A DNA stretch of 64,000 bases from the NCBI GenBank assembly GCA_026395685.1, contig JAPLYG010000009.1, positions 17,519 to 81,518 of the forward strand, written 5' to 3'. The number at the start of each line of letters is the position of its first letter. Position 1 is the stretch's first letter. Made by a program: the position numbers and the translations under genes. Under the pieces are notes generated by a model. That model was not told where the DNA came from. It saw only the letters and a list, made by a program, of their open reading frames with translations, and made no database searches. The stretch is from Candidatus Parcubacteria bacterium (lineage in GTDB: Bacteria; Patescibacteriota; Patescibacteriia; CAIXNZ01). Of the stretch, positions 54,773 through 64,000 are shown in pieces.

Positions 54773-55189
54773 TTATTTAGATTCCTGCTCCTTAATATAT
54801 CTTCTAATTCTATTAATCTCAAATCCCACAGTAGAAACAGCATAGCCCCTGGCCCAGAAATGTTCGCCGATAAAATTCCTTTCCTTGCCGCAAAACTGCC
54901 TGGCAATCAAAATAGCGCTTTTGCCTTTCAAATACCCGACAATTGAGGCCACCGCATACTTGGGCGGTATTTCAATGCACATATGCACATGATCCGGCAT
55001 AATATGGCCTTCAATTATCCTGCAACCTTTATATTTAGCCAATTCATGGAATATCCCGCCAAGCTGGAGCTTAATTTTTCCATAGAGAATGCTTTTGCGC
55101 CGTTGAGGAATAAAAATCAGATGATAAACGCAATCCCACCTGCTGTGGCACAAGCTTTGATAATTATGCATGTGATAATTTCCCTTCAC
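54773..55189 (-). mobile_element. tnpA: IS200/IS605-family transposase TnpA (HUH Y1), no tnpB
   Basis: 138 aa; HUH motif HVHM and catalytic Tyr region YAVSTVG; hairpin terminators on both flanks. Confidence 0.85.
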
Positions 55190-55280: not shown

Positions 55281-55586
55281 TTAAGCATTCAGCTTCAAAT
55301 GATCTAGAACCTTTTTTAATGAAGACTCCAAACGGTCATATTTTGAGCGCAATGAAACCAATTCCAAGTCTAACTTTTGATGCAATCCGATAAATGAATC
55401 AATATGGGTTATTGTCTCATCTTTATTTTCCCTCATTTCATCCCTAACCTCTTTTAATTCTCCCCTTATTTCTCTAATATCATCCTTGGAAGCAAAATTC
55501 TTCAGATCATCCTTCGTCGGCGCAGTATCTTTAATAAAAGAGACTATCTCTAAAATATCGTTTAAATTTTTATCTTGATTATTCAT
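55281..55586 (-). CDS. hypothetical coiled-coil protein
   Basis: 101-aa charged ORF. Confidence 0.4.
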   Translation of the reverse strand: MNNQDKNLNDILEIVSFIKDTAPTKDDLKNFASKDDIREIRGELKEVRDEMRENKDETITHIDSFIGLHQKLDLELVSLRSKYDRLESSLKKVLDHLKLNA

Positions 55587-55728
55587 AAATTCAATATTAT
55601 TTTGTGTCTTTATTATAGCTTTATTGACGCTTCCCTGTCAAATACAAACTTTAAGCGATAATTACCGCCCAAAGGAACGCTCAAAGCTTATCAAGTCTCC
55701 CCAGCTAAAGCTGGGGGTTTTCCTATTT

Positions 55729-56556
55729 TTAATAAGCACCATAGGTTTCCAAGTCCATATTCCCGTTGTTGTCGTAGCTGACATCCACGCCTAAATCAGT
55801 GAAGTCCGTGACGGCATGTGGATTTGCGTACAAACTTCCTGTATTGCCATTATATTCATAATCCCCGACATCCGATTTATTCAGGATATTTCCGAGACTG
55901 TCATAGTTGTAAGTTTGCGTATAATCATCCTCCGTCGCCGAATCCGTTATCGTCGCGCCTGTCAGACGATACAAGTCATCATAAGCATAGGCGGCATTTT
56001 TTCGGGTATTTGTTTCAGATTGATCAATAATGCCAGTAATATTTCCAACATCGTCGTAAGTATATGCCAAATCCTGTATTCTCTTTCCGGCCATGACAAA
56101 ATAATCGTTTCCATTAGTCCATTCTCCTTCATTGTCCGACTCATCCCATAACTTAATTCTCCAATTATATTTCATCCCATTCAAAGCCAGCGGATCACCG
56201 CCATAAGAAATGTCTTCAGTGCGGTCGCCTTCAAGCACAGAGGTGGCAAAGGCGGTTTTTTCGCTATCCCAAAGAGGATCATTCCAATCGCCATCGTAAG
56301 GAATAACCTGTATTTGATAATAGTCGGCGTAATCCCCTGTATCAGGATCATCATAAATCGCTGAAAATTCAGGCGTAGTGTCAGAAATTTTGGTCGCCTG
56401 CTGCGGCCAGAGGCGCACCTGGTCCAGCTTAATCCAGCTTGTTTCCTCACCCAAATAGAAAATCAAACGAGCGTCGGATTCAGTCACATTCGGAGTCAGC
56501 TCAATCTGGAATTTGGCAAATTCGCTGATTGAATTGCATGCGGAATCAATTTTCAT
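55729..56556 (-). pseudogene. orphan 5'- and 3'-truncated near-duplicate of an internal segment (CBM end + YD repeats) of the giant toxin gene
   Basis: Protein nearly identical to the giant protein from ...EFAKFQIELTPNVTESDARLIFYLGEETSWIKLDQVRLWPQQATKISDTTPE to ...VSYDNNGNMD; DNA near-identical by eye to ~58510-59300. Confidence 0.75.
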
Positions 56557-56697
56557 AAATACTAATTCTCAAATGGACTACTTTAATTAATGACTTCATA
56601 GCCAAAATTAGGGTTAGTTTTCTTTAGCTCATTCAAAAAATCAAAAAATTATCTATATATTTTTTAAATACCAAATTTTGAATCTTTTTATAATTTT

Positions 56698-56868
56698 TCA
56701 ATTCGAAAAATACATTTTCATCGCTATAACTATATGCATCAAAAAAGCATCCAAGTTTTTGCCATAACCAATTATCAAGCTGGATAAATTCAATTTTCTT
56801 TCCAAGTAACTATTTAATTCGACGGCTGTATTAATTTTACCAAAATCAAAAATAATAGTTTTTTTCAT
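56698..56868 (-). CDS. unannotated 56-aa ORF (MKKTIIFDFGKINTAVELNSYLERKLNLSSLIIGYGKNLDAFLMHIVIAMKMYFSN)
   Basis: Hand translation; below ORF-track cutoff; sits between the immunity candidate and the orphan fragment. Confidence 0.25.
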   Translation of the reverse strand: MKKTIIFDFGKINTAVELNSYLERKLNLSSLIIGYGKNLDAFLMHIVIAMKMYFSN

Positions 56869-56897: not shown

Positions 56898-57272
56898 CTA
56901 GTATAAACAATATTCCTTTGTTTCATAATAAGGCAGCTCCTTTATCGGAGCCCCCGGTAAAATTCTATCAACATAAGCATTATTAAATTTAACAAGCTCG
57001 GCTTTGAATATTTTATTGTCCTTTATATAAACTAAACCTTCAGAAAAGTCGTTTGTTCTAAAGAATAAAATTACTCCGCCTCTATATTCGCAGGTAATTA
57101 TTTCATTGGACTCCGCAAAATTGATAGCGCCAACCCTTCCTTTAAAATAATTAATCGCCGCTGGCGAATCGACTTTATGCATAGTGTTATAATCCCAAAA
57201 CCATATTAAATAAATGATTGCCAAAAGCAGGGAAATACTTATGAGGATTATTTTTCGATACTTTTTATTCAT
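56898..57272 (-). CDS. putative cognate immunity protein (N-terminal TM anchor, 124 aa)
   Basis: Starts 18 nt after the stop of the toxin gene, co-oriented; no known domain. Confidence 0.45.
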   Translation of the reverse strand: MNKKYRKIILISISLLLAIIYLIWFWDYNTMHKVDSPAAINYFKGRVGAINFAESNEIITCEYRGGVILFFRTNDFSEGLVYIKDNKIFKAELVKFNNAYVDRILPGAPIKELPYYETKEYCLY

Positions 57273-57289
57273 AATTTTTATATATTAAA

Positions 57290-60200
57290 TTAGTCTAAAT
57301 TAAGCGATCCTACTTTCTGTACATTTTCTATTGAATTATTACTGTTCAGGAAATCCGATAATGAGGCATTAGGATTTTCTTTTAGTAATTGACCAAATTG
57401 TGCGCCGAGCTGATTAGCTTGAATATCATTGAAATCATATTTTTCCCGTCCAGATGTAAAAATAATTTCCCAGTTTTCAACTAAATTACCAAGAACATTT
57501 ACAGTTTCTGGCCCAAACATATAAGATAACAAGGCAGAGGCAAAAAAATGCTGTAATTTATCTGTATTATCCAAAAAAGTATCAGTAGTATATTGTCCAA
57601 ATAATCCGCTAGGCAAATCGAAAATCCTCTCTTTCCTATCTTTGTTATTTACATCAGCACTGTTAAAACTTGTCCTCGTAGCTTCCATCATAACATATAA
57701 TGTTTCCTCTGTATTTCCACCTGTTAAATTATTAGCATAATTATAAATCTTATTCAAGCCTTGTATATTACTATCGCCAGATTGCATGTTTAAATTATTC
57801 TTCACGAAATTATTTGTTAAACTTACATTCAAAATTGTGAAAATTCCCACTGGCCCCTCACCTGTTGGATCTACATAAACAAAGGGCCTATTGGCCACAT
57901 AACTATATGAATTCAAACTCTGCGGATCTATTAAAATATCAAATGATTTTTTACCATACTTCTTTCTCAAATCTGTTCCCATATCCAAAAACATCGGATC
58001 CTCGCTCACAAACCTCCCCGCTTCCCCGCTATAATACCTCGCCCCAAAGTACTGCAATCCCGACGAGTCGGTTTCAATTTCCTTTTGGGTGAATTTTTTC
58101 CTTTGGTCAAAAGACCCGTTTTCAGGATCGCTTTGTTCGTTAAAGCGCATATTGCCAAATGGATAGTAATCAACTACCTGCTCAACATCCCCGTCATCCT
58201 TAGTCATGACACTGCTTGATGTCAAATGGTCGTCATGGACATAATATTCATTGCGATTTGTTCCGTCGTCTGTGATCGTCAGCACAAGCTGGTTATTGGC
58301 GTAAACATTTTCAGTAATTGTCTCATCCTCGCCGACAATCTTTTTATCAAAGTATTTATTGGGATAAACAATAATTTCGCTTCCAGAATCAATGTCCTTG
58401 ATTATCCTTTGTCCAGCATGATCGTAACCATAACTTGCAGGAGTTGCCCAAATTCCGTCGCTTGTCGCCATTCGGTTATTATAATCCCAATCCGCCTCAA
58501 AAACAGTATAAGCTCCGAGTGTTTCCGCATCCATATTGCCATTATTATCATAACTCACCTCCACACCTAAATCCGTGAAATCCGTAACAGCATGCGGGTT
58601 TGCGTATAAGCTTCCTGTATTCCCGTTGTACTCGTAGTCCCCGACATCTGATTTTGACAGGATATTGCCTAAGCTGTCATAAGTAAATGTCTGCGTGTAG
58701 TCATCCTCCGTCGCCGAATCCGTAATCGTCGCTGAAGTTAATCTGTATAAATCATCATATGCATAAGCGGCATTCTTTCGGGTATTTGTTTCAGATTGAT
58801 CAACAATTTCAGTAATATTGCCCACATCATCGTAAGTATAAGCTAAATCCTGAATACGCTTTCCCGCCATCACGAAATAATCATTCCCATTCGTCCACTC
58901 GCCCTCATTATCCGATTCATCCCACAGTTTAATTCTCCAGTAATACTTCATCCCATCTAGCATTAAAGCATCCCCGCCATAGCTGATATCCTCGGATCTA
59001 TCTCCTTCATCTACTGAATTTGTGAAAGCAGTCTTGCCGGAATCCCAAATCGGATCATTCCAATTACCGTCATACTTAATCACTTGGATTTGATAATCAG
59101 TTGCGGAATCCCCAGTATCAGGATCATCATAAATCGCTGATAATTCAGGAGTAGTGTCAGAAATCTTAGTCGCCTGCTGGGGCCACAATCGCACCTGATC
59201 CAGCTTGATCCAGCTTGTTTCCTCACCCAAATAGAAAATCAGCCGAGCGTCGGATTCCGTTACATTCGGAGTCAGCTCAATCTGGAATTTGGCAAATTCA
59301 CCGTTATTCCAGACAGTGTCAAATGGCACGACTGAACTTATCTCACTAAAGGGGTTGTAATTCAGGGTTATGGCTGCTCGGGCTGTCCTGGGATCGTAAT
59401 TCTCTGAATGGGCGTAAAATGTAAGAATATAGGTTTGGTCTTCAACAACTGAAATCGGCTGGGCAAGAGACACTTCCCAGTATCCTCCGCCGGTTGTCAC
59501 AGTTACTTTGTCGCAGGAATTGCCATCATAAGACTCGGTATCGTCAATCGCATTGGTTCCCGTTCCGTCCGGATAACCTTTACTGGTGAAGTACCAGGTA
59601 TTGCCCCAGTTTTCAAAGCTCGGATCGGTTATCATGTTCAGATCATCAGGAGTCAAGGAAACATCATCAATCCAGTATGTTCCCGCATTGTCGCCCAGAT
59701 GGAAAGTAATAATGGAATTTTCATCATCAACCGCAACTGTGAAAGTATAGGAGTATTCCTGCCAATCAGTTCCGGCTTCTATTGTTCTGTAAATGCCCTG
59801 CTGGGTCCAGGGTGAATGGTTTTGGTAAGCCTGAATGAAAAATTCTGTTGCGGTTGAAGCCTTGGCCCAGAATTTCCAGGTGTAATTTTTGCCGGCAAGC
59901 AATTTGACCGACTGGCCCACATGCACTTCCCAGGGCTCGCCTGTTGTGGATACAATCACTTTTTCCGAACATGATCCGCTGTGCGATACTGTGCAGTCTT
60001 CAGTATGCGTCGCATCCAGCTCATTCTGCCAGTTCCAGCTGTCAAATCCGTCCTCAAAGCCGGAATTGTACAGGATATTCGCGCTTTTCCATAAATCTTC
60101 GGACAGCAGGTCTGTTGATGGATCAGGAGGATTGACGCTTAAAAGCATATTTTCGCCCAGGCTTTCTTTTTGTTTTTCCAGAAAATCAATCATTCCCTGG

Positions 60201-63200
60201 GGCAAGTATTTTAATTCAGGCTCTTTTTGAGATTCTTTCGCCTTATCAAACATTTCAATTGCTTCTTTGGGCAAAGGTTCGGGTTTGACATTGGGATCGT
60301 ATTTAACATAAATTGTTTCGTCTTTAGGATAGTTGTCATAGCGGACAGGACGGCCCAGAAAGTCGCGCTTAACCTTGTTTGCGGATTTTTCATTACTGCT
60401 TGCCTCCTTGATATCCGTAGATCCGTAGCCAATCTGTAGATTAGTAACAATATCAACGCCAGGCAGAGTTTCCAGAAAACCGCCGACTGCCTGACCAACA
60501 GAAGCTAACGGATTGCCAATAAGGGTTGCGGGTGTACTGGATTCTTCGTCCCGCGCCGCGGGACTCTGAATGACAGTGGGTGGTGCGGCAATCAAGGATT
60601 CTTCGTCCCGCTCCGCGGGACTCTGAATGACAGAGGAGGTCGCCATCATCAATCCTTCGCCGTAGTCGCCCTCATCAGGACTTGCCGTTATTTTCTCTTT
60701 CAAACGATACAGCTTGGCCTCGTCATAGTCATTGAATGTTTTCACTCCATTGGCGTTTTCCTGGTACGCGACCTGCTCCAAAGGCGAATAATCATAATCG
60801 CTCACAATATCGCTAAACGACTCTTCGCCATCAGGCTTGCTCTGCACTTTTTCCAAAAGACCTGCAGTATTGTAAACATACTGAACTTCATCGTCATTGG
60901 GATAGGTAATCAAAATCTGGTTTCCCTGGCGATCATAGCCATACTCGGTCAAATAATTCGTAGAATCAATATTTTTATTCTCGGTCTTAACCCCGCCTAA
61001 AGCATTGTAAGTATAAGTTGTCACAACATCAGCTGTTGTCGCCGTGTACAATCTGCCAATCCCGTCAGTGCCGGTGTCATAAACATAAGCCACTTCGGTT
61101 CCGCTTTGGCCCGTGTAATTCTCGGTTAAAACGCGGTTGATGTCGTCATACGACCAGTTGACTGTCTGGTTTTTCGGATCTACGCGCGAAGTTAAATTTC
61201 CCGAATCATCATAGCCGTATGTCCATTCGCCGAAAGTCTCGTCTTCAGGATCATGCAAATCTTCGGCTGTGAGCCTCCTGCCAAGTCCGTCATAAGTGAA
61301 ATTGCGAATATTGTCCTGCGAATCTTCAATTTGAGTTAAATTGCCCAAGCCATTATAGGCGTAATTTGTGGTATAAGTATTAGCGCCATTATGTTCGTCA
61401 ACCTGGATTAAATTGTCATAAGCGTCCTTGTACAAATCCTTGACATTGCTTTCCGCGTCAGTAATCGTCAGTTTCCAGTCATCATAGGTATTGGTCGTTG
61501 TTCCAACCGCGTTGGTCGCTGTTAAAACCCTTTGCAAGGGATCATAAGTGTAGGAAGTATATAACGCCGTATCAGTGGTCGCCGTTGTCTGAGCTGAACC
61601 TGTGGAAAAGTACGGCAAAGATTCCTTGTCTAAAAGACCAACGTCATTGTAAGCGTAATCTTTGGCTGAATAAGTATTTGAAGCCTCAGACTCTTTACGC
61701 TCCTGAATTTTCCTGCCAAATCCGTCAAGATAAGTGTAAATATCAAAACTGGTTGAAGAATCAAGATTATTTGTCTGCTGAACTTTGGTTGGCACAGTGT
61801 TATCGGTATAAGTGTATTCTGTTTTAATAACCAAAGTGCTCGGAGTAGACAGATAAGGCTGTTTTTCCTGCTTTACCCTATCCAAAGCGTCATAGACCGT
61901 CTGGAATACCCGGCTGTTGGGATCAGTCACTTGCGTCGGCTTACCCAAAGAATAATCATATTCATAATCCGTATCCTGGTCTAAAGCATTTGTTACTGTG
62001 GCAGGATATAAATTATATGTGTCATAAGTATAATCAGTTGTCTTGTCCTGCGGATCTTTTTCTTGAGTTACTAATCCGTACGCATTATATGTTTTTTCAA
62101 TATCAATATAGCTTGTGCCTGACTTCCACATTTCCTGCTTTGTTAAATTGCCTTCGTCAACATTGCCCAAAGTTAAACTATCATAATAATATTTAGTTTC
62201 TTTAACTTTATTGGAACTCTGGTCAATTGTAGTTTCCTGGCTGGGCAAGCCAATAACATCACTGCCGGTAGTGGCGGCATAATCAATGTCAGTAGTATAT
62301 TTATCAGACCCCGTATCCGTGAATGTTCCATTTGAATTGCCGGAAACTTCGCCCCAGGTTATTTTCTGGGTCAGATTGCCGTTATCATTGTCATATGCAT
62401 AAGTCTCGGCCGTGTCCTTATGGCTGGTATTCCCGTCAAAAGCAAAGCCGATTGTCTGGGTCTGCTTCACAAAGTCCCTGTCATCACCCAAATCGTAATT
62501 TTCCCATTTATTGACGCTAAAACGGAAAAGATTGGCGCTGTCATCATAGATTTCCGTGCGGTACGGCTTGCCGATTTTTGACGCGTCATCCAAATACTCG
62601 CCGTTGCCAGTATCAGTACCATTGCCCTGATGGAAAAAAGTCATAGCTACATTGCCGTCTCCATCAACTTTGGCAATCTGATTAAAGCCTGCGAATTTGC
62701 GGTTCAGATAGTCTTCATAATAATAATCCCCGCCGACATAAAAATACGATTCAGATGAGAGATTATCAAAACTGTCGTTGTATTCAATATAGTTTACTGT
62801 CTGGACAGCAAAAGGCAGGTCAGGATTTTGCAAACTGTCATTTTCAATATATTGTGGCGAGGCTTTATAGGTTACGCTAAACTCTCCGCCTTTGGCATTG
62901 GTTGATTCGGAAAGTAAGTCGGCTTTAAACCCCATATTCAACACGACCCCGCCACCTATAGTCGGAGGTGGGTTACTATTTTTATAACCATATATAATAT
63001 CGGGCAAACTATCTCCATTAATGTCTGAAATATGTACACCATTACCATTGCTATTATTGAGAACTCCTCCGAACAGAGGGATATAACTTGTATTCTGTTG
63101 TAACCATCCGTGCCCTGTATTTATAAATACTCTATGTATACCTGGGGAAGAAAGATAAAGTGATTGGACTAAATCGGTCAGGCCATCCCCATTTACATCA

Positions 63201-64000
63201 GCCGCACGAACACCATTATCAATCGGATAAGCATACCAGTCTGCCCAATCCTCATAAAAAATAACTGGAGCTATTAAATTTTCATCCTCTATCCAACCTC
63301 CGTTACCGTCATTAATATATGTGGCCTGCTCAATCCGATCCAATTCCGGATGTTCATACATTGCGTGCCAATACCAAGAACGCATGACATCCTCTAAACC
63401 ATCTCCGTTAAAATCCGCAATAATTGTCCCACTTCTTAAATCAGCTGGCGGGACTAGATTTGTTTGGATTGCCCATGTATTATCGCCATTGTTTAGTGAA
63501 ACTGATCCTGAAATTGGATCATCGGGCTGCCAACCTGTTGGTTTATATCCTTGAATAATATCTGGCAGACCATCTCCATTTATTTCCGCAAAAAATGTCC
63601 CATGAGATAACAATGATTGTGCACTGCCAAAAGTAGGTATATAATCAATATTTTGCATTGACCAGCCAGTACCTGTATTAAAATATATTTTATGGATACT
63701 TGATGGCGAAGCACCTAAAGACTGGACCAAATCAGTTAAGCCGTCACCATTAACATCAGCCGCCCTAACTCCATTATCATATGGCCAGCCATTCCAGACT
63801 TCATCATAATAAAAAATTAGAGGCGGAGCTAATTCTTCACTTTCAATCCAACCGCCATGTCCGTCATTAAGATATGTTGCAATCTCATCAGGATCTTCAT
63901 TCTGAGGACTATATGATCTTAAAATGTCAGGCAAACCATCGCCATTAACATCGGCTACAATTACACCCTTGCGTAAATCACAAGGTGGATACCAGTCTTC
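57290..64000 (-). CDS. giant polymorphic-toxin-like surface protein (FG-GAP-like repeats, YD/RHS repeats, two CBM4/9-like modules, RHS core ending NSYSYVANRPFVYVDPTGE, ~210-aa unclassified C-terminal domain). N-terminus lies beyond the window edge
   Basis: Repeated DVNGDGLxD, many YxYDxxGNL YD repeats, GFEDGFDSWNWQ and DPSFENWGNTWYF CBM-like starts. The reading frame stays open through 63935-64000. Confidence 0.85.
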   Translation of the reverse strand, partial: EDWYPPCDLRKGVIVADVNGDGLPDILRSYSPQNEDPDEIATYLNDGHGGWIESEELAPPLIFYYDEVWNGWPYDNGVRAADVNGDGLTDLVQSLGASPSSIHKIYFNTGTGWSMQNIDYIPTFGSAQSLLSHGTFFAEINGDGLPDIIQGYKPTGWQPDDPISGSVSLNNGDNTWAIQTNLVPPADLRSGTIIADFNGDGLEDVMRSWYWHAMYEHPELDRIEQATYINDGNGGWIEDENLIAPVIFYEDWADWYAYPIDNGVRAADVNGDGLTDLVQSLYLSSPGIHRVFINTGHGWLQQNTSYIPLFGGVLNNSNGNGVHISDINGDSLPDIIYGYKNSNPPPTIGGGVVLNMGFKADLLSESTNAKGGEFSVTYKASPQYIENDSLQNPDLPFAVQTVNYIEYNDSFDNLSSESYFYVGGDYYYEDYLNRKFAGFNQIAKVDGDGNVAMTFFHQGNGTDTGNGEYLDDASKIGKPYRTEIYDDSANLFRFSVNKWENYDLGDDRDFVKQTQTIGFAFDGNTSHKDTAETYAYDNDNGNLTQKITWGEVSGNSNGTFTDTGSDKYTTDIDYAATTGSDVIGLPSQETTIDQSSNKVKETKYYYDSLTLGNVDEGNLTKQEMWKSGTSYIDIEKTYNAYGLVTQEKDPQDKTTDYTYDTYNLYPATVTNALDQDTDYEYDYSLGKPTQVTDPNSRVFQTVYDALDRVKQEKQPYLSTPSTLVIKTEYTYTDNTVPTKVQQTNNLDSSTSFDIYTYLDGFGRKIQERKESEASNTYSAKDYAYNDVGLLDKESLPYFSTGSAQTTATTDTALYTSYTYDPLQRVLTATNAVGTTTNTYDDWKLTITDAESNVKDLYKDAYDNLIQVDEHNGANTYTTNYAYNGLGNLTQIEDSQDNIRNFTYDGLGRRLTAEDLHDPEDETFGEWTYGYDDSGNLTSRVDPKNQTVNWSYDDINRVLTENYTGQSGTEVAYVYDTGTDGIGRLYTATTADVVTTYTYNALGGVKTENKNIDSTNYLTEYGYDRQGNQILITYPNDDEVQYVYNTAGLLEKVQSKPDGEESFSDIVSDYDYSPLEQVAYQENANGVKTFNDYDEAKLYRLKEKITASPDEGDYGEGLMMATSSVIQSPAERDEESLIAAPPTVIQSPAARDEESSTPATLIGNPLASVGQAVGGFLETLPGVDIVTNLQIGYGSTDIKEASSNEKSANKVKRDFLGRPVRYDNYPKDETIYVKYDPNVKPEPLPKEAIEMFDKAKESQKEPELKYLPQGMIDFLEKQKESLGENMLLSVNPPDPSTDLLSEDLWKSANILYNSGFEDGFDSWNWQNELDATHTEDCTVSHSGSCSEKVIVSTTGEPWEVHVGQSVKLLAGKNYTWKFWAKASTATEFFIQAYQNHSPWTQQGIYRTIEAGTDWQEYSYTFTVAVDDENSIITFHLGDNAGTYWIDDVSLTPDDLNMITDPSFENWGNTWYFTSKGYPDGTGTNAIDDTESYDGNSCDKVTVTTGGGYWEVSLAQPISVVEDQTYILTFYAHSENYDPRTARAAITLNYNPFSEISSVVPFDTVWNNGEFAKFQIELTPNVTESDARLIFYLGEETSWIKLDQVRLWPQQATKISDTTPELSAIYDDPDTGDSATDYQIQVIKYDGNWNDPIWDSGKTAFTNSVDEGDRSEDISYGGDALMLDGMKYYWRIKLWDESDNEGEWTNGNDYFVMAGKRIQDLAYTYDDVGNITEIVDQSETNTRKNAAYAYDDLYRLTSATITDSATEDDYTQTFTYDSLGNILSKSDVGDYEYNGNTGSLYANPHAVTDFTDLGVEVSYDNNGNMDAETLGAYTVFEADWDYNNRMATSDGIWATPASYGYDHAGQRIIKDIDSGSEIIVYPNKYFDKKIVGEDETITENVYANNQLVLTITDDGTNRNEYYVHDDHLTSSSVMTKDDGDVEQVVDYYPFGNMRFNEQSDPENGSFDQRKKFTQKEIETDSSGLQYFGARYYSGEAGRFVSEDPMFLDMGTDLRKKYGKKSFDILIDPQSLNSYSYVANRPFVYVDPTGEGPVGIFTILNVSLTNNFVKNNLNMQSGDSNIQGLNKIYNYANNLTGGNTEETLYVMMEATRTSFNSADVNNKDRKERIFDLPSGLFGQYTTDTFLDNTDKLQHFFASALLSYMFGPETVNVLGNLVENWEIIFTSGREKYDFNDIQANQLGAQFGQLLKENPNASLSDFLNSNNSIENVQKVGSLNLD

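Follow-up and report, generated by a model that had tools for sequence, protein, structure and literature searches.

A ClaspCone-3 Lipocone domain as the predicted toxin tip of a Parcubacteria RHS protein

Results

An RHS scaffold carries a divergent C-terminal tip

The window, which is the whole 64,000-nucleotide stretch of Candidatus Parcubacteria DNA analysed here, ends inside a partial minus-strand RHS gene that encodes more than 2214 residues and terminates at the stop codon 57290-57292 (Table 1). Its reading frame is open up to base 64000, and the TTG at 63934 encodes an internal Leu. The scaffold comprises FG-GAP/VCBS-like repeats, RHS/YD repeats, two CBM_4_9 modules, a Rha78A-like Ig domain and the RHS-associated core, with Pfam matches to RHS_repeat (7.4e-24), CBM_4_9 (3.8e-17) and FG-GAP_3 (2e-12). 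The NCBIfam profile TIGR03696 (RHS repeat-associated core) matches residues 1923-2025 of the 2214 listed with an E value of 1.4e-12. Because this match ends at residue 2025 (profile position 75/76), the end of the core was placed at the PFVYVDPTG sequence, within ...RPFVYVDPTG. By analogy, the P-FVYV-DPTG motif is predicted to be the site at which the tip is released by autoproteolysis. The protein thus displays the architecture of an RHS polymorphic toxin, in which RHS/YD repeats and a core ending in PxxxxDPxG are followed by a variable tip.

Table 1. Features at the RHS locus. Coordinates are positions in the window.
Feature	Coordinates	Strand	Basis or remark
RHS delivery scaffold	57863..64000	(-)	Partial, N-terminus past the window end
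P-FVYV-DPTG motif, RHS core end	57860..57886	(-)	TIGR03696 end; sequence read directly
C-terminal tip, 189 aa, ClaspCone-3 Lipocone domain, predicted toxin	57293..57859	(-)	HMM, AlphaFold2, hhalign
D101-K102-L-Q-H105-F-F, predicted H2 active-site motif (DK and catalytic His)	57542..57562	(-)	Alignment
E129-N-W-E132, predicted H3 active-site Glu and second H3 acidic position	57467..57478	(-)	Alignment
D146-I-Q-A-N150-Q-L-G153, H4 Asp, small residue then Asn, helix-capping Gly	57404..57427	(-)	Alignment
ORF124, candidate cognate immunity protein	56898..57272	(-)	ORF listing; 17 nt after the toxin stop
Frameshifted barstar-like remnant, orphan immunity gene of an RNase-type cassette	56600..56868	(-)	Three-frame reading
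Orphan truncated RHS-core copy (CBM end, Ig domain, RHS repeats)	55729..56556	(-)	DNA identity, Pfam

The earlier note had quoted the sequence beyond the RHS boundary, which was found on the minus strand, and had given the tail about 210 residues, where 189 were measured. The interval 57290-57940 used there takes in the last 26 residues of the core.

The GC content drops from 0.43-0.47 to 0.30-0.34 at about 57860-57980, and amounts to 0.32 in the tip compared with 0.43 in the core. Between ours and a related RHS protein (P0004), identity is 62 % for the core and 31 % for the tip. Together with the small gene directly downstream, this composition break and the diverged tip on a conserved core bear out the proposal that the region is a variable polymorphic-toxin tip. 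Further downstream, two remnants were observed. The barstar-like remnant, reconstructed to 95 aa, matches positions 3-78 of 96 of Pfam Barstar with an E value of 0.0077, which is below the curated cut-off. The orphan core copy shows 80 % DNA identity over 797 bp to 58508-59299 and matches Pfam Ig_Rha78A_N (8.4e-07).

The tip belongs to a family that shares one domain

Pfam, NCBIfam, PADLOC and PHROGs returned nothing significant for the tip, and neither did a phmmer search against PDB sequences; for these curated libraries, the earlier note was right in assigning the region to no known motif. The tip sequence alone, used as the query in a word-indexed search of 5.8 billion proteins, gave zero matches. 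Exhaustive phmmer retrieved 79 cluster representatives related to the tip (E<=1e-3, best 1.6e-13), all of which share one common domain of about 165 positions with invariant D-K-x-x-H, E and D residues. When the 80 family members were searched against Pfam, DUF2279 was weakly matched by five and VanZ by two, and the tip itself matched neither DUF2279 (PF10043) nor VanZ. Against PDB sequences, the family profile yielded only a chance match to Seb1 (E 0.35). DNA scans of genomes and of metagenomes with the RHS-tip alignment gave five loci each, mostly standalone Ignavibacteria-type genes, and one further pair of tip and immunity gene, L015.

The family was also found on delivery scaffolds other than RHS, a possibility that the earlier note had raised: one member is fused to WXG100 and adjoins an EssC-like FtsK ATPase, and others are part of giant proteins with a C39-like peptidase domain. 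Among the loci with a membrane-anchored ORF downstream of the tip, one forms an array in which RNase tips occur as well. In a neighbor-joining tree of the family, the RHS-linked tips form a branch of their own, apart from the housekeeping clade.

The tip is predicted to adopt an all-helical fold with an intact active site

Residues and helices are numbered in a 190-aa window (57293-57862), the first residue of which is the G of DPTG. AlphaFold2 with an alignment of 26 sequences produced an all-helical model of the tip (pLDDT 89, pTM 0.84); the single-sequence prediction was unusable (pLDDT 47). The model contains helices at 5-22, 32-46, 51-61, 73-82, 96-116, 118-135, 144-162 and 168-187. Helices 96-116, 118-135 and 144-162 correspond to H2, H3 and H4, respectively, and helix 32-46 probably represents H1 in the model. 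A two-helix insert (51-61 and 73-82) and a loop (83-95) with the conserved P84 precede H2.

By its published definition, a Lipocone domain has a four-helix core in which H2 carries a conserved His, H3 a conserved Glu and, close to its end, a second acidic residue, and H4 a conserved Asp that precedes a polar residue, with a Gly close to the end of the helix (PMC12419801). All of these elements are present in the modelled core, with H105 on H2, E129 and E132 on H3, and D146, N150 and G153 on H4. D101, K102 and H105 are invariant in all 80 sequences, as is E129; position 132 is Glu in 60 and Asp in 14 sequences. D146 is found in 79/79, and G153 in 78 of the 79 non-gap sequences. Position 150 is Asn in 64 and Asp in 15 of the 80. 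In the hhalign alignment of the tip family profile with E. coli YfiM (90.5 % probability, E 1.4e-6), D101/K102/H105 align to D27/K28/H31, E129 to E72, and D146/N150/G153 to D87/D91/G94, so that the catalytic residues are in register. The tip has a GRAVY of -0.42 and lacks a transmembrane segment, which places it in the soluble range.

Sequence profiles place the tip in ClaspCone-3

The Lipocone superfamily and its ClaspCone-3 family were defined by Burroughs, Nicastro & Aravind (eLife 2025; PMC12419801). An HMM built from 17 published ClaspCone-3 sequences scores 105.9 bits against the tip (E 1.7e-33), and the relatives P0002 and P0007 include, letter for letter, two of the published entries, MBI4352443.1 and MBI3292706.1. 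On these profile and alignment grounds, the tip is a member of ClaspCone-3, and the domain is not new or unclassified as the earlier note had suggested.

The clade of ClaspCone, CapCone and TelC is characterised by low hydrophobicity, by a DK (or xD) motif that precedes the H2 His, and by an Asn at the fourth position past the H4 Asp with a small residue before it (PMC12419801). The tip conforms to this signature with D101-K102-x-x-H105, A149-N150 and its negative GRAVY. Another clade feature is a Ser three positions before the H4 Asp, usually after an aromatic residue; here the position is D143, which is Asp in 71/80 and Ser in 7/80 sequences, and it is preceded by Tyr or Phe in 37/80. The aromatic residue is thus retained, and Asp has mostly taken the place of Ser. 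The two-helix insert before H2 that marks ClaspCone-3 is present in the model.

Neighbouring families fit less well. The ClaspCone-2 HMM scores 38.5 bits, and membership in that family is not indicated. The CapCone Gly six positions before the H2 His is absent from the tip, in which position 99 is Asn (Asp in 56/80 and Gly in 13/80 family members), and no CapCone β-hairpin clasp was observed in the tip model. The prok-TelC Asp six positions after the H4 Asp, which pairs with an Arg of the C-terminal helix, was not found in the tip. The tip also differs from the YfiM-DUF2279 family in that it has no PF10043 match, is soluble and is longer.

A membrane-anchored ORF follows the RHS-linked tips

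ORF124 is present as listed in the earlier note and encodes 124 aa. An N-terminal membrane anchor at about residues 8-26 (maximum 19-aa hydropathy 2.65) is followed by an extracytoplasmic domain of about 95 residues. The GC content of 0.325 resembles that of the tip. ORF124 has no entry in the contig index; the only database match is an NCBI protein of a 'Candidatus Parcubacteria bacterium' MAG, which is 100 % identical, and no meaningful match was found among PDB sequences. A scan for promoters around ORF124 gave nothing above background, and the two terminator-like hairpins from the scan both lie inside the ORF.

For all five RHS-type or probable RHS-type tips that were examined (ours, P0004, P0001, P0008 and L015), a small ORF lies about 10-40 nt downstream, and its product carries a membrane anchor at the N-terminus. 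Three of these downstream ORFs encode mutually homologous TM + PDZ-like proteins, to which ORF124 is unrelated (hhalign 0.4 %). Immunity proteins of Lipocone toxins are TM proteins or lipoproteins that work outside the cell (PMC12419801), a rule that the membrane-anchored downstream ORFs match. ORF124 is a candidate cognate immunity protein of the tip.

Most family members, on the other hand, are standalone, secreted proteins in conserved synteny without an immunity-like neighbour. The earlier note had held that a match to a characterised non-toxic domain, or a constant absence of a small immunity-like gene next to the domain, would speak against a toxin. The nearest characterised relative, YfiM, is a housekeeping enzyme and most members lack such a gene, which partly bears out this objection, whereas every inspected RHS-linked member has the membrane-anchored ORF downstream.

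Discussion

Comparison with known Lipocone proteins and envelope toxins

Published ClaspCone-3 proteins share with the tip the DK-x-x-H, E and D-x-x-(small)-N-x-x-G residues, the two-helix insert before H2 and a hydrophobicity in the soluble range. In contrast to the tip, they are described as periplasmic only, carry the label 'Exopolysaccharide', have no edge in the context network and are not given as toxin tips (PMC12419801). No RHS- or WXG100-linked sequence from the present analysis occurs in the supplementary sequence files of that publication that were searched (PMC12419801). Seven Lipocone families are given there as tips of RHS or other polymorphic toxins, including the sister family ClaspCone-2 (PMC12419801). 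ClaspCone-2 resembles the family of the tip in its motif pattern and C-terminal RHS fusion, and the published profile-profile probability between the two is 99 %. Its toxin tips comprise 16 RHS fusions, with T6SS delivery, 4-TM immunity proteins and hosts in FCB, PVC and Pseudomonadota (PMC12419801). The candidate immunity protein here has one TM anchor instead of four TM segments and is encoded in a Parcubacteria MAG.

TelC, an LXG/T7SS toxin of Streptococcus intermedius in the prok-TelC family, belongs to the same superfamily and clade as the tip according to the publication. This secreted, soluble Lipocone toxin works only from outside the cell, where it cleaves lipid II, and its immunity protein TipC also acts there. 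The WXG100-linked ClaspCone-3 protein beside the EssC-like ATPase parallels the T7SS delivery of TelC. The lipid-linked-oligosaccharide pyrophosphatases YfiM (DUF2279), VanZ and Llp1 have a catalytic core homologous to that of the tip, in which the experimentally essential residues are conserved. In YfiM, Ala substitutions of K28, H31, E72 or D91 abolish the lipid-linked-oligosaccharide pyrophosphatase activity. These housekeeping enzymes are small and are either integral membrane proteins or lipoproteins, whereas the tip is soluble and sits on an RHS scaffold; compared with YfiM, it is about 95 residues longer at the N-terminus and has Asn in place of D91. Colicin M-type toxins act on the periplasmic side and destroy the carrier linkage of lipid II, as is predicted for the tip. 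This resemblance is functional only, the folds being unrelated, and these toxins share immunity types with Lipocone toxins (PMC12419801).

Proposed action of the tip

We consider it likely that the tip is a soluble ClaspCone-3 toxin of a Parcubacteria (CPR) RHS polymorphic toxin, which hydrolyses phosphate-linked lipid head groups at the target envelope. Release by the RHS core would take place at the PxxxxDPTG site. The freed, all-helical tip may then bind a membrane lipid, whose tail would lie in a cone-shaped cavity and whose head group would be held at the predicted active site formed by K102/H105 (H2), E129/E132 (H3) and D146/N150 (H4), where the phosphate-linked head group would be hydrolysed. 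The likeliest substrates would be lipid II, cut at its pyrophosphate linkage, or other glycans carried on undecaprenyl-PP at the outer face of the target membrane, and their cleavage would block wall synthesis of the target, as with the Lipocone toxin TelC. YfiM, VanZ and Llp1 carry out such a reaction in a housekeeping role. ORF124 would reside in the producer membrane with its domain outside and neutralise the tip there.

A toxin of the same fold might instead attack membrane phospholipids, removing or exchanging head groups in the manner of phospholipase D and thereby damaging the membrane directly. We regard this as unlikely: apart from PTDSS1/2, the Lipocone enzymes tested so far, including YfiM as the closest in sequence and TelC as the only tested toxin, cleave polyprenyl-PP-linked glycans, and the catalytic residues of YfiM are otherwise conserved in the tip. 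A helical, colicin-like pore-former that inserts into the membrane can practically be set aside, as both the hydropathy and the invariant charged residues speak against this reading.

The tip could also be a surface-bound or released enzyme of an episymbiotic Parcubacteria cell rather than a toxin, acting on its own or the host envelope in, for example, attachment, wall remodelling or lipid acquisition, with ORF124 as an unrelated membrane protein. CPR bacteria rely on hosts for lipids. The Parcubacteria origin of the MAG, the carbohydrate-binding modules on the RHS protein, the homeostatic role of YfiM, the published 'Exopolysaccharide' label and the housekeeping-like character of most ClaspCone-3 members are compatible with such a role. 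The GC step, the divergence of the tip on a conserved core and the orphan core and immunity remnants argue against it, as do the separate branch of the RHS-linked tips and the recurrence of membrane-anchored downstream ORFs in unrelated loci, one of them the array with RNase tips. With this evidence weighed, an enzyme with no role in toxicity appears improbable. The tip most probably represents a known type of toxin that acts on the cell envelope, and its fold is not a new one among toxins.

Implications

What was a mystery toxin domain can now be assigned to a named superfamily. Its active site is predicted, with counterparts in YfiM that mutagenesis has validated, and its class of substrates can be tested. 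The assignment leaves the current understanding of RHS toxins unchanged. ClaspCone-3 as an RHS tip is new to the literature, as is its probable link to the T7SS, and ORF124 and the TM + PDZ-like protein represent candidate new immunity types for Lipocone toxins. More speculatively, and with low probability, delivered effectors may have arisen from ClaspCone-3 on two or more occasions, once in a distinct RHS-tip branch, for which ORF124 and the TM + PDZ-like proteins would be two unrelated kinds of membrane-anchored immunity protein at the least, and once in a WXG100/T7SS-linked branch; the Parcubacteria RHS version might then target lipid II or membrane lipids of the host, for killing or lipid harvesting, and not sister strains. 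The locus points to a CPR bacterium equipped with such a weapon, which could act outside the target cell with no need for import.

The RHS gene and the boundaries of its tip

The very long RHS ORF (coordinates in the table) contains FG-GAP-like repeats, many RHS/YD repeats, two CBM_4_9 modules and a Rha78A-like Ig domain, as identified with Pfam. The TTG at 63934, given as its start by the ORF listing, is an internal Leu codon. The two carbohydrate-binding modules and the Ig domain are unusual inserts in an RHS shell, and a near-duplicate short peptide (VIQSPAERDEES / VIQSPAARDEES) lies in the same interval of the gene (about 59600-61100 on the minus strand, an approximate range derived from residue numbers). 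Because the RHS-associated core domain ends at the DPTG boundary, the tip comprises 189 aa. The earlier note, which quoted the correct peptide, had taken the tail as ~210 aa; its interval also covers the final 26 residues of the RHS core.

Coordinates of the features discussed
Feature	Position	Strand	Basis
RHS ORF	open from window end (base 64000) to stop 57290-57292	-	reading frame
RHS-associated core domain	residues 1923-2025, ends ...RPFVYVDPTG (nt 57860-57886)	-	NCBIfam
Tip	57293-57859	-	
ORF124 (124 aa), candidate immunity protein	56898-57272	-	
Frameshifted barstar-like remnant	56600-56868	-	Pfam Barstar E 0.0077, below curated cut-off, on reconstructed 95-aa peptide
Orphan truncated RHS-core copy (CBM end, Ig domain, first RHS repeats)	55729-56556	-	80 % DNA identity to 58508-59299
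101-aa ORF, coiled-coil-like	55281-55586	-	weak, scattered Pfam hits only
IS200-type Y1 transposase	54773-55189	-	Pfam Y1_Tnp 4.6e-35
TM-anchored PDZ-like proteins	L005 2606-3061; L006 724-1131; L015 302-727		31-35 % identity; weak PDZ_6 hit E 0.0016

The tip very probably belongs to ClaspCone-3

A word-indexed protein search with the tip returned no relatives. Run exhaustively against 1.84 billion cluster representatives, phmmer returned 79 at E<=1e-3 (best 1.6e-13), all sharing one domain of about 165 positions. Judged by these sequences, the tip is part of a real, conserved family. D101, K102, H105 and E129 (numbered from the Gly of DPTG) are invariant across the 80 sequences, and D146 is kept in 79/79. 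G153 is kept in 78 of 79 non-gap sequences. At position 150, 64 sequences have Asn and 15 have Asp; at position 132, 60 have Glu and 14 have Asp. AlphaFold2 was useless on the single sequence and needed an alignment for a usable model; with 26 sequences, the tip was modelled confidently as all-helical (pLDDT 89, pTM 0.84), with helices at residues 5-22, 32-46, 51-61, 73-82, 96-116, 118-135, 144-162 and 168-187.

At a loose threshold, weak Pfam matches were observed among the 80 members to DUF2279 (five) and VanZ (two). E. coli YfiM is the DUF2279 prototype, and profile-profile comparison matched it to the family alignment with 90.5 % probability (E 1.4e-6), in the register DKLQHF = DKAQHF, E129 = E72, D146 = D87, N150 = D91 and G153 = G94. 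YfiM, VanZ, PTDSS1/2, TelC, SAA and Wnt are all included in the Lipocone superfamily of 30 families (Burroughs, Nicastro and Aravind, eLife 2025; PMC12419801), which has a four-helix core with an ancestral active site of His (H2), Glu (H3) and Asp (H4). The ClaspCone-CapCone-TelC clade is soluble; its H2 His is preceded by a DK motif, a small residue then Asn stand four positions past its H4 Asp, and the ClaspCone families have an additional two-helix insert ahead of H2 (PMC12419801). The tip shows all of these features.

The tip scores 105.9 bits (E 1.7e-33) against an HMM of 17 published ClaspCone-3 sequences and 38.5 bits against one of ten published ClaspCone-2 sequences, so it is very probably a ClaspCone-3 member. 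In curated resources the tip has no assignable motif: nothing in Pfam, NCBIfam, PADLOC or PHROGs, and no PDB chain sequence, matched it significantly. The C-termini of two relatives, P0002 and P0007, occur verbatim in the ClaspCone-3 supplementary sequence file of PMC12419801, which also holds many standalone-type proteins. Assignment to CapCone was rejected, as the tip has neither the Gly six residues before the His nor the beta-hairpin clasp, and assignment to the TelC family was rejected because it lacks the Asp that TelC has six positions beyond the H4 Asp.

The probable toxin cassette in the window

GC content drops from 0.43 in the RHS core to 0.32 in the tip, with the step between about 57980 and 57860, and ORF124 (0.325) resembles the tip. 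Identity to P0004, a metagenomic RHS protein, is 62 % over 405 aligned core residues and 31 % over the tip. ORF124 starts 17 nt past the stop codon of the RHS gene and has a strong N-terminal membrane anchor (residues 8-26); its sole database match is an NCBI protein of identical sequence, from a MAG labelled 'Candidatus Parcubacteria bacterium' (164.6-kb contig).

Downstream, a barstar-like gene is broken by two frameshifts at T-runs, possibly homopolymer sequencing errors, and its 95-aa peptide was obtained by reading across three frames. It probably represents what is left of an RNase-type toxin/immunity cassette. The orphan RHS-core copy ends abruptly at ...LETYGAY, directly followed by a GC-rich palindrome (CCCCAGCTTTAGCTGGGG, about 55700-55720). 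The nearby IS200-type transposase may have interrupted the orphan array; the coiled-coil-like ORF sits between this transposase and the orphan RHS fragment.

Architectures and neighbours of related domains

Standalone proteins, 200-260 aa long and bearing a signal peptide, make up about 45 of the 79 representatives; where the source is named, it is a MAG of Ignavibacteria, Kapaibacteria or Bacteroidota. About a dozen carry the domain at the N-terminus, ahead of a long tail. The domain forms the C-terminus of giant proteins in two, one with a C39-like peptidase domain, follows an RHS DPxG boundary in three (P0001, P0004 and P0008) and is fused to WXG100 in one (P0016). The P0016 locus (L007 1-9517) is a T7SS-like context: P0016 is flanked on one side by an EssC-like multi-FtsK ATPase (>1770 aa) together with an FHA protein, and on the opposite side by a VWA-FHA protein; no small immunity-like ORF lies next to P0016. 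Five RHS-type tips form one branch of a neighbour-joining tree (without bootstrap), apart from the standalone, WXG/tail and giant-protein branches.

The standalone genes look like housekeeping genes, because no immunity-like neighbour was found and a conserved sigma-54 response regulator lies directly downstream in several independent contigs. Among Ignavibacteria/Bacteroidota loci (L001 6001-8024; L012, L013, L017, L019), identity is only about 30-33 % between the standalone genes and 54-59 % between the regulators; the arrangement suggests a conserved operon.

Around the RHS-type tips the picture differs. Downstream of the P0004 tip lies an ORF that starts with MKKYSAFILILIPILLILIW, where the contig ends. 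P0001, P0008 and a metagenomic tip (L015), all of the 'DKNQHFF' subtype, are each directly followed by a TM-anchored protein (135-151 aa) that gives a weak PDZ signal; the three are mutually homologous. They may constitute a new immunity family for Lipocone toxins and have no detectable relationship to ORF124. The P0001 locus (L005 1-4220) is a metagenomic array of orphan RHS tips including PT-TG/ribonuclease cassettes: an RNase tip and immunity gene, P0001 and its PDZ-like ORF, then a PT-TG/Ribonuclease tip and an immunity gene homologous to the first.

Proposed function

The best-supported reading is that a ClaspCone-3 Lipocone enzyme serves as the RHS toxin tip, and a toxin role is likely. 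Lipocone enzymes act on phosphate-linked lipid head groups (PMC12419801). Purified YfiM is a Ca2+-dependent lipid-linked-oligosaccharide pyrophosphatase, abolished by K28A, H31A, E72A or D91A, and its overexpression causes osmotic lysis (2026 preprint, 10.64898/2026.09.16.752124); these residues correspond to K102, H105, E129 and N150 of the tip. TelC, the sole Lipocone toxin tested to date, cuts lipid II; its toxicity is confined to the extracytoplasmic side, where an immunity protein counters it (PMC12419801). The tip would attack such a head group from the outer side of the target membrane, and ORF124 would serve as its immunity protein, anchored in the membrane and acting outside the cytoplasm. 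The target would most probably be lipid II or some other undecaprenyl-PP-glycan, a tentative assignment with somewhat less than even chances; a phospholipid substrate is a less likely rival. A further, unlikely rival is a non-toxic envelope- or host-remodelling role. A pore-forming toxin is disfavoured by the low hydropathy of the tip and the invariant charged residues in its central hairpin.

The earlier note had raised a candidate new toxin domain, yet both the superfamily and the family were already published, as were Lipocone domains serving as RHS tips, with RHS fusions counted for Min-Wnt (341), CapCone-1 (94), prok-SAA (51), VanZ-1 (32), ClaspCone-2 (16), prok-TelC (10) and CapCone-2 (9) (PMC12419801). 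The text of that study and the supplements examined give neither ClaspCone-3 as an RHS- or WXG100-linked effector nor the two candidate immunity types (ORF124 and the TM-anchored PDZ-like proteins), and the sequence files among these supplements contain none of the RHS- or WXG100-linked sequences found here. The ClaspCone-3 RHS tip is an incremental extension of the published Lipocone work.
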